Assembly (NCBI RefSeq): GCF_048403405.1
Contig: NZ_CP183131.1
Origin: Escherichia coli
Lineage (GTDB): Bacteria; Pseudomonadota; Gammaproteobacteria; Enterobacterales; Enterobacteriaceae
Reading direction: 5' to 3' (one strand)
DNA: 64,000 bases
In this document: piece after piece, positions 47,588 to 47,908 of the stretch
Layout: every line of letters starts with the position of its first letter
Position numbering within the stretch: position 1 is the first letter of the stretch
Made by a program: the position numbers and the translations under genes
The notes under the pieces: model-generated
What the model saw: only the letters and a program-made list of their open reading frames with translations
Databases searched by the model: none
Told to the model about the DNA's origin: nothing

Positions 47588-47908
47588 TTACCAAACAAGT
47601 TCCTTGCCCTTACGAAGGTAAGTCGGGATTTCGAGATAATCCCAGTCAGGTTCTTGTTTAGCGACTTCTTGAACTTGAGTTACCTCAGGTTCAACGACTG
47701 CTTTGGCTTGTTCAGCCTTGGCAGCACGTTCTTTGATGACGGCCTGTACAGACCGCATTGCAGGAACTGCGAATTTGTTCCAAAGGAACAAACCGATACG
47801 CTGGAACACTTTAGCGAGAACGATGAAGGAAAAAGCAAATGCCTTCGCGCCTACGTACAGTGCGCCCAGAGATGCAAGCAGAACTACAATGAAAGTGATG
47901 ATGTGCAT
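47588..47908 (-). CDS. membrane-anchored protein carrying an FtsZ C-terminal-peptide mimic
   Basis: N-terminal hydrophobic helices, an A/E/K/Q linker, then EPDWDYLEIPTYLRKGKE (47609-47653). Compare E. coli FtsZ ..KEPDYLDIPAFLRKQAD. Confidence 0.75.
   Translation of the reverse strand: MHIITFIVVLLASLGALYVGAKAFAFSFIVLAKVFQRIGLFLWNKFAVPAMRSVQAVIKERAAKAEQAKAVVEPEVTQVQEVAKQEPDWDYLEIPTYLRKGKELVW

Follow-up and report, generated by a model that had tools for sequence, protein, structure and literature searches.

Why should a small protein encoded by a conjugative plasmid end in what looks like the tail of its host's own cell division protein? The question is raised by vcrx087, a gene on the minus strand of a 64,000-nucleotide stretch of Escherichia coli DNA (contig NZ_CP183131.1 of assembly GCF_048403405.1, hereafter the window), where it heads the host defence evasion (hde) operon. 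The initial annotation of the window had read the product as a membrane-tethered mimic of the conserved C-terminal peptide (CCTP) of FtsZ, borne on a plasmid. The 106-residue translation given there matches exactly: reading on the minus strand from the ATG at 47906-47908 to the TAA at 47588-47590 yields MHIITFIVVLLASLGALYVGAKAFAFSFIVLAKVFQRIGLFLWNKFAVPAMRSVQAVIKERAAKAEQAKAVVEPEVTQVQEVAKQEPDWDYLEIPTYLRKGKELVW, which ends in KQEPDWDYLEIPTYLRKGKELVW. By equal length and position this open reading frame (ORF) is vcrx087 of plasmid pVCR94 (65235-65555), and the plasmid setting was likewise borne out, as the window represents an IncC (IncA/C2) conjugative plasmid backbone. In 732 plasmid records, most of them conjugative, from Klebsiella, Escherichia, Salmonella, Vibrio and other genera, the 2 kb around the gene recur with at least 99% identity; the record that was examined is typed as IncC. 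Both identity and position assign the protein to the Vcrx087 family, encoded by the first hde gene of IncC/IncA-like 'ACL' plasmids. In published work vcrx087 is termed a "gene of unknown function" and full-text literature searches found no functional study of it; searches of Pfam, NCBIfam and PHROGs assigned it to no family, Pfam returning at E<=10 only a sub-threshold match to DUF7802, and PHROGs only matches at E=0.027 or above, none of them annotated as a division inhibitor. A 149-residue ORF (47477-47926, plus strand) spans all of vcrx087 in antisense; it was rejected as a gene, the minus-strand vcrx087 being annotated, conserved and transcribed.

The resemblance of the tail to FtsZ is real and statistically robust. 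Aligned without gaps, the core DYLEIPTYLRK and residues 370-380 of E. coli FtsZ, DYLDIPAFLRK, are identical at eight of 11 positions and the remaining three changes are conservative (D/E, A/T and F/Y), for which BLOSUM62 gives 47 of 58 possible points. The E. coli sequence used for the comparison was translated from MG1655 (C-terminus TAKEPDYLDIPAFLRKQAD; CCTP, residues 370-383, DYLDIPAFLRKQAD; tail peptide KEPDYLDIPAFLRKQAD). The FtsZ tail of K. pneumoniae is identical to it (PDB 8h1o), and B. subtilis FtsZ, in which DIPTFLR is followed by NRNKRG, carries the A-to-T change naturally. Vcrx087 has the FtsZ core [DE]-[IV]-P-x-[FY]-L-[RK] together with the upstream D-Y-L, and retains the equivalents of I374 and L378 (I94 and L98) as well as the proline, the arginine and the lysine, with F377 replaced by tyrosine. 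For a random ungapped 11-mer compared with DYLDIPAFLRK, the exact probability of reaching a score of 47 or more is 1.4e-10 per position. The window yields 1221 stop-to-stop segments in six frames, 84,394 residues in total; in Smith-Waterman alignments of the 17-residue E. coli tail with every one of them, the Vcrx087 ORF scored 48 and the next best segment 29.

The similarity between Vcrx087 and FtsZ is one of motif and not of domain. Outside the terminal peptide the two proteins share no homology, and neither Pfam nor NCBIfam finds a tubulin/FtsZ GTPase domain in Vcrx087, which is therefore not a homologue, fragment or paralogue of FtsZ; as to whether the tail itself was captured from the 3' end of ftsZ, its DNA resembles that end no more than the shared amino acids require. 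The search of the tail alone that the initial annotation had called for gave a divided answer: by generic methods no significant match was obtained, and by motif-level score the tail ranks first in the window. A phmmer search with the last 31 residues found nothing at E<=10 among all PDB sequences, and pairwise comparison of the tail with E. coli FtsZ reached a non-significant 7-9 bits by phmmer and 23.5 bits by blastp. Such failure is expected, as the motif is only 11 residues long. Two other readings of the peptide were rejected, namely an SSB-like tail (DDIPF), as the I-P-x-Y of Vcrx087 is internal and not C-terminal, and a beta-clamp motif, as nothing of the QL[SD]LF type is present.

Could the resemblance nevertheless serve no function, having arisen by chance in an ORF that is small and hypothetical, or in a spurious gene? 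The silence of generic profile searches about FtsZ is in keeping with this, and chance alone should produce about 30 such 11-mers in 1.84 billion proteins; in the six-frame window, on the other hand, the expectation is 1.2e-5. The history of the tail is more telling. The initial annotation had made conservation of the motif in orthologues the test of its claim, and the tail turned out to be the best conserved part of the family and the only region conserved throughout it. A word-indexed search gave 16 homologues, and a profile search of 1.84 billion cluster representatives gave 16 matches at E<=0.001, all of the Vcrx087 family, with no other scaffold and no FtsZ among them. As a scan of 185,579 species genomes returned only seven loci (one each in Shewanella and Edwardsiella, three in Vibrio and two contaminant-like), the family is narrow. 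On a 5.3-kb contig of a Trichlorobacter metagenome-assembled genome (L011) and a 611-bp contig of the actinomycete Kitasatospora arboriphila (L017), the protein is 100% identical to that of the IncC gene in the 087 region; both look like contamination or mis-binning and not like true hosts.

Within the family, identity falls to 19-40% and only P95, R99 and G101 are invariant (20 of 20 sequences). The tail follows the pattern E-x-D-W-x-x-[LYF]-[DE]-[IV>EQT]-P-[TAS]-[YF]-[LI]-R-[KRQN]-G-x-x-[LI]-[VA]-W, in which [DE] is kept in 20/20, [IV] in 16/20, [YF] in 19/20 and [LI] in 20/20, so that apart from the exceptions at [IV] the core fits [DE][IV]P[TAS][YF][LI]R[KRQN]. Over the last 17 codons, comparison with a Vibrio homologue gives a proportion of synonymous differences (pS) of 0.93, near saturation, and of nonsynonymous differences (pN) of 0.10, which indicates strong purifying selection on the tail peptide. 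The complete tail was not found on another protein scaffold in pattern scans of viral and metagenome contigs: P[TAS][YF][LI]R[KRQ]Gxx[LI]VW-stop had no match in a DNA-pattern scan of the IMG/VR viral contigs and 13 in metagenome contigs, every one of which is a family member with the same N-terminal anchor. The FtsZ-like pattern DYL[DE][IV]Px[FY]LRK matched once in the viral contigs, where by a rough estimate about 0.2 matches are expected, in a 55-residue ORF ending NIDYFEIPHFLRK-stop (L021, 4018-4185, plus strand); we judged it a chance match, as it lies antisense within a 243-residue Gly-rich, tail-fibre-like ORF.

A peptide of this kind would matter to FtsZ partners only if it faced the cytoplasm, the compartment of FtsA, ZipA, MinC and SlmA, and the architecture of Vcrx087 predicts that it does. 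The layout that had been proposed, i.e. a membrane anchor, a linker and an FtsZ-like tail, was recovered, with two amendments. Several hydrophobic helices had been described at the N-terminus; one transmembrane helix is conserved (residues 2-21), whereas the segment that follows it (residues 23-43) is amphipathic or weakly hydrophobic, its Kyte-Doolittle mean exceeding 1.6 in only four of 15 members and Q, H, R or K interrupting it in others. It is probably a juxtamembrane amphipathic helix. The linker had been called flexible, and there is indeed a variable stretch rich in A, E, K, Q and V; AlphaFold2, however, models a helix that is confident at the anchor (predicted local distance difference test, pLDDT, about 90) and continues to residue 72, disorder being confined to residues 72-89 (pLDDT below 50), with a short helix at 96-99 in the tail. 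From the first charged residue after the anchor to the D-W motif the family members span 51-88 residues that lack conserved sequence, except for the short motif R-[SP]-x-x-A-V-I, which stands between the membrane region and the variable linker. The tail thus has the placement of the FtsZ peptide, C-terminal after a disordered linker of variable length and predicted to be cytoplasmic.

Extra copies of the amphipathic segment, one or two, were seen in P0017, P0020, P0023 and P0024 and also in L024, L026, L031 and L034; in P0020, SLVYMSQQMHRGIVFFV is repeated as SLIYVSQQTHRVIIFAV. In these members, then, the membrane-proximal module varies in repeat number and the tail stays constant.

The prediction of orientation rests on charge. 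In all 15 members K and R are absent ahead of the hydrophobic segment, and K/R number 2-7 and D/E 0-2 in the 30 residues that follow the first charged residue. This positive-inside pattern predicts an N-out/C-in topology, and hence a protein that crosses the inner membrane once and ends in the cytoplasm. We therefore consider it highly improbable that the C-terminus is periplasmic, with the N-terminal segment serving as a signal peptide or N-in anchor. Were it so, FtsZ partners would be irrelevant and the aromatic LVW end might act, for example, on a PDZ protease or in envelope or exclusion functions. Ligands of PDZ domains do carry a C-terminal aromatic residue. A possible V-G-A/K signal-peptidase-like site (the slash marks the cut) follows the first hydrophobic segment, and the neighbours sfx (the adjacent vcrx085, encoding the surface-exclusion lipoprotein Sfx) and traN encode envelope proteins. 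The distribution of charges is, however, the opposite of that in a signal peptide, and an exclusion screen by transposon-directed insertion sequencing did not pick up 087.

Vcrx087 is also clearly expressed. According to published work on pVCR94, the box for the activator AcaCD in its promoter is the best-scoring one on that plasmid (p=2.4e-13) and coincides with the second-highest peak (19009) in chromatin immunoprecipitation with exonuclease treatment (ChIP-exo); RNA-seq expression of the gene was 5 without AcaCD, 3445 with AcaCD and 1454 in the wild-type plasmid, and the promoter was reported to be both constitutive and activated by AcaCD/SgaCD. Transcription starts 152-154 nt upstream of the ATG, leaving a leader of 152 nt. 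The box and the start site were placed in the window by inference, with the vcrx087 start as anchor (65235 = window 47908) and collinearity assumed; a -10-like hexamer, TATATT, lies at 48067-48072, and the AcaCD box overlaps an oppositely oriented box that serves the divergent gene acaB. By reverse transcription PCR, a single mRNA, "likely initiated at Pvcrx087", was found to span 087, 089 and bet, in an operon of the order 087-088-AAA ATPase (089)-090-ssb-bet-exo. Of its products, 089-090 are known to enable evasion of type I restriction in the recipient, and ssb-bet-exo to repair breaks made by CRISPR-Cas. A gene that is annotated, transcribed and regulated by AcaCD, with a tail under strong purifying selection, can hardly be spurious; conservation and expression together effectively refute a chance resemblance, to which we give almost no credence.

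What, then, would such a peptide do at the membrane? We find it somewhat probable that the tail of Vcrx087 binds at least one FtsZ-tail receptor, whether it thereby interferes with division or only marks a place. The more specific proposal of a membrane-tethered decoy, which as a rival of FtsZ filaments for FtsA and ZipA would retune division, is the one we put forward, tentatively and with rather less than even confidence. It starts from what is described above, namely the gene with its expression and its place in the operon, the motif with its conservation, and the predicted cytoplasmic exposure. From there the tail would occupy the CCTP-binding sites of membrane-proximal FtsZ receptors, most likely FtsA (subdomain 2B) and ZipA (C-domain), because these are on the same membrane surface as Vcrx087, with MinC, SlmA, ZapD and ClpX as further possible targets; the filaments would thus be deprived of some of their membrane anchors. 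Binding to FtsZ partners is what we infer from the motif, and an effect on division would follow from it. As monovalent CCTP binding is weak, that effect would be graded and dependent on expression, i.e. a transient dampening or delay of Z-ring anchoring and division and not killing. It would be strongest when hde is highly induced, as in donors with AcaCD on and in new transconjugants, and the time gained before the first division could serve anti-restriction by 089-090, repair by Ssb, Bet and Exo, plasmid replication and partition.

Several published observations make such a decoy plausible. FtsZ C-terminal fragments of 30 residues (354-383) inhibit growth of E. coli when expressed, and the free FtsZ 14-mer competes with FtsZ for SlmA. 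The 14-residue tail suffices for binding to ZipA (20 uM), FtsA (50 uM) and SlmA (81 uM); I374 and L378 are crucial to the binding of ZipA, FtsA, MinC and SlmA, I374K abolishes binding to SlmA, and F377 is among the three FtsZ residues most important for ZipA. In phage lambda, kil, a division inhibitor dependent on FtsZ and ZipA, belongs to the pL operon, where it overlaps gam and adjoins bet and exo, and the kil gene of Rac also blocks Z rings. It is the inhibition by tail fragments and the position of lambda kil next to bet and exo that lend the decoy its plausibility. The strong AcaCD motif of vcrx087 and its induction count in its favour too, and the entry of the plasmid into a new cell, for which the initial annotation had suggested a delay of division, fits as a setting, since the downstream genes of hde act in the recipient on entry. 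That annotation had also supposed that a plasmid-borne FtsZ-tail decoy was undescribed, and indeed full-text literature searches found no plasmid- or phage-encoded mimic.

Against the decoy stand a number of points. One is the low affinity of a monovalent tail (Kd 20-80 uM). vcrx087 is abundantly transcribed in ordinary IncC-bearing E. coli, its promoter being partly constitutive, and in the literature searched we found no report of filamentation or of a division phenotype of vcrx087. In a transposon sequencing (Tn-seq) screen for transfer into V. cholerae, 089-093 were flagged and 087 was not named. At the position that corresponds to I374, four of 20 family members (P0018, P0021, P0022 and P0024) have E, Q or T. 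In addition, the invariant glycine and the near-invariant C-terminal L-V-W are found throughout the family and are without counterpart in the FtsZ of E. coli or B. subtilis, so that the selective constraint on the tail is not simply to look like FtsZ; the FtsZ tail of Thermotoga, as co-crystallised with FtsA, reportedly has a similar R-x-G...hydrophobic ending. Lastly, wherever the context can be read, the synteny of 087 with 088-089-090 is strict.

A weak and transient tail that is highly expressed without filamentation would be less awkward if its purpose were localisation. The tail might bind FtsA or ZipA as an address label and not as an inhibitor, bringing Vcrx087, and a partner of its R-S-x-x-A-V-I motif, to the Z ring, the septum or the new pole; a plasmid function would then be placed at the division site and division would not be delayed. 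This draws on the same motif and topology as the decoy, and the published dwell time of single FtsZ tail peptides on FtsA, about 90 ms, illustrates a kind of monovalent binding that is better suited to localisation than to titration. High constitutive expression without filamentation is compatible with it, and the second conserved motif and the duplicated amphipathic segments hint at additional interactions. The address label has no known cargo, however, and since free FtsZ tail fragments are inhibitory when expressed, some competition would be hard to avoid at high copy. We regard it as unlikely.

The strict synteny raises another alternative, in which FtsZ plays no part. The tail may dock a plasmid-encoded partner, be it Vcrx088, the 30-residue peptide encoded next to it, Vcrx089 with Vcrx090, or a component of the type IV secretion system (T4SS). 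Vcrx087 would then hold the machinery of anti-restriction or repair to the membrane, close to where DNA enters, and its likeness to FtsZ would have arisen by convergence on a generic acidic-Pro-aromatic-Leu-Arg peptide. In the distant loci whose context was read (L003, L004 and L009), a divergent acaB-like gene is followed by 087, a 30-residue hydrophobic ORF, 088 (60 residues) and an AAA_5/CbbQ_C ATPase, and after the ATPase by 090, SSB (absent in one locus), RecT, YqaJ and DUF3150; every 087 homologue with readable context has the 30-residue ORF, 088 and the ATPase after it, and 087 always travels with this type of hde operon. It is this synteny, together with the variants at I374, the family-specific glycine and L-V-W, expression without filamentation and the Tn-seq result, that sustains the alternative, as does the restriction of the full tail pattern to this one family.

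Other observations speak against docking. The 11-residue match to the FtsZ tail of the plasmid's own hosts would then be a coincidence, with the per-position probability given above (about 1e-10), and the closest match, D-Y-L-E-I-P, occurs in lineages from enterobacterial genera, Shewanella, Edwardsiella and Vibrio. More distant plasmid loci in Stutzerimonas, V. halioticoli and Moellerella carry a homologous CobS-like ATPase (36-47% identity), ahead of which there is no 087-like gene and instead unrelated small soluble proteins are encoded, so that 087 is not an obligate subunit of the ATPase system. Furthermore, 089-090 alone in the recipient complemented the anti-restriction defect, though 087 remained on that plasmid. 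On balance we consider docking to a plasmid partner rather unlikely, and the membrane-tethered decoy remains the proposal that we carry into the comparison with known systems.

With the FtsZ CCTP itself, Vcrx087 shares the core D-Y-L-[DE]-I-P-x-[FY]-L-R-K, including I374 and L378, and the modular logic, in which an assembly or anchoring module is followed by a disordered linker that varies in length and this in turn by the peptide, at the very C-terminus. It differs in having a 20-residue membrane anchor in place of a polymerising GTPase, so that the tail would be monovalent, or of uncertain valency, and not displayed on filaments; in the tryptophan before the motif and the glycine and L-V-W after it, where FtsZ has KQAD or NRNKRG; and in the residue equivalent to I374, which is not always hydrophobic in distant family members. 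The closest parallel to the proposed mechanism is the laboratory one: expressed FtsZ C-terminal fragments and synthetic C-terminal peptides inhibit growth and compete for FtsZ partners, whereas Vcrx087 would be a natural, membrane-tethered and plasmid-encoded version.

Lambda Kil and Rac KilR offer a parallel in setting, being small proteins of mobile elements that are co-transcribed with bet/exo-type genes, and the action of lambda Kil on the Z ring depends on ZipA; a transient block of division is likewise the outcome that we propose for Vcrx087. Lambda Kil, however, is a soluble 47-residue helix-turn-helix peptide that acts on FtsZ assembly and not a membrane-anchored copy of the FtsZ tail, and Vcrx087 bears no sequence similarity to it (no Pfam match). 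In architecture Vcrx087 is reminiscent of ZipA. The N-terminus of ZipA is anchored by a single membrane pass and protrudes only very briefly into the periplasm; in the cytoplasm a long flexible linker leads to the interaction module at the C-terminal end. The likeness is of layout only, the topology of Vcrx087 being predicted from charges; ZipA carries the receptor domain for the FtsZ tail and Vcrx087 a copy of the ligand, and the two are unrelated in sequence. DicB, SulA, MciZ, T7 Gp0.4 and CbtA are likewise small proteins that modulate Z-ring formation. They bind the globular domain of FtsZ or MinC, and to our knowledge mimicry of the FtsZ tail has been ascribed to none of them; searches of Pfam, NCBIfam and PHROGs showed no sequence similarity between them and Vcrx087.

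The features of the locus are collected in Table 1. Downstream of vcrx087, the 30-residue hydrophobic ORF is probably a genuine hde gene for a micro-protein: the AGGAGCAAC context of the vcrx087 start is duplicated ahead of it (repeat D6, AGGAGCAACAxCATG), and an ORF of similar sequence occupies the same position in L003, L004, L009 and L012. The vcrx087 leader (47930-47975) and the stretches behind vcrx087 (47515-47548) and behind the 30-residue ORF (47369-47385) hold GC-rich hairpins that share the word GGGGCAAC/GTTGCCCC as their basis; these hairpins could be intercistronic elements of RNA stability, processing or attenuation, and an Rfam search of the leader and the intergenic regions, hairpins included, gave chance-level matches only. 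The 39-nt repeat of the leader has its relatives in a 121-nt perfect direct repeat (42066-42186 and 46901-47021), which lies upstream of vcrx089 and downstream of exo and so flanks the 089-exo block. The 121-nt and 39-nt repeats are probably the published intergenic 'rpt' repeats of IncC, which Bet and Exo use for repair by single-strand annealing. The SSB encoded in the operon (ssb, 44401-44940, minus strand) has the canonical tip DDDIPF followed by nine extra residues, by which the normally free terminal phenylalanine would be buried; in a distant hde operon (L009, 4069-4653) SSB has the canonical end, KDDIPF-stop.

Table 1. Features of vcrx087 and its surroundings, in coordinates of the window (bp, base pairs numbered from the first letter of the stretch)
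Feature	Position (bp)	Strand	Basis or remark
vcrx087 coding sequence, 106 aa + stop, hde operon cistron 1	47588..47908	-	annotated WP_000547566.1, hypothetical
Transmembrane anchor, conserved, N-terminal, residues 2-21 (HIITFIVVLLASLGALYVGA)	47846..47905	-	Kyte-Doolittle 19-residue mean 2.4
Second hydrophobic/amphipathic helix, residues 23-43 (AFAFSFIVLAKVFQRIGLFLW)	47780..47842	-	Kyte-Doolittle 1.75
Conserved short motif R-S-x-x-A-V-I, residues 52-58	47735..47755	-	recurs in most distant homologues
Variable A/E/K/Q/V/P-rich linker, residues 60-88	47645..47731	-	no sequence conservation
Conserved tail, residues 89-106, W-DYLEIPTYLRK-GKELVW	47591..47644	-	FtsZ-like core, then family-specific G..LVW
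Shine-Dalgarno AGGAG, 7 nt ahead of the vcrx087 ATG	47916..47920	-	sequence reading
39-nt repeat in the vcrx087 5' leader	48005..48043	-	85% identical to copies at 46962-47000 and 42127-42165 (repeat family D2)
vcrx087/hde transcription start	48060..48062	-	transferred from pVCR94 start 65081-65083 (rapid amplification of 5' cDNA ends, 5'-RACE)
AcaCD activator box of the vcrx087 promoter (GAAGTGCCCAAAATGGACAGTTACAGCGT)	48096..48124	-	transferred from pVCR94 motif 65019-65047
acaB (vcrx086), divergent, common AcaCD-bound intergenic region	48202..48843	+	annotation and literature
Unannotated 30-aa hydrophobic ORF (MEIAIIALCIPTGWAISRPFVRIAESFGYC), cistron after vcrx087	47401..47493	-	same ribosome-binding-site context
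vcrx088, 61-aa soluble protein	47099..47284	-	no Pfam match
vcrx089, AAA_5/CbbQ_C ATPase, anti-restriction with vcrx090 (published)	45911..46879	-	Pfam and literature
vcrx090, ssb, bet (exo further downstream)	43317..45900	-	rest of hde operon

In Klebsiella, E. coli, Salmonella and Vibrio, genes for carbapenemases and multidrug resistance have a major vehicle in IncC plasmids, and vcrx087 is among the most strongly AcaCD-activated genes of their backbone. Should the decoy reading be wrong, the tail still marks a conserved, uncharacterised membrane component that heads the hde operon, and if it docks a plasmid partner, the missing membrane component of the hde system would be defined. If the reading is true, Vcrx087 would be the first natural inhibitor or modulator that copies the hub peptide of the divisome rather than attacking the globular domain of FtsZ, a new mechanism among the division modulators of mobile elements and a rare case of short-linear-motif mimicry in bacteria; it would also provide a ready peptide scaffold with which to probe or drug the interface of FtsA and ZipA with FtsZ. 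For the plasmid and its hosts, it would mean that establishment, with its anti-restriction and recombinational repair, is linked to control of the host cell cycle.

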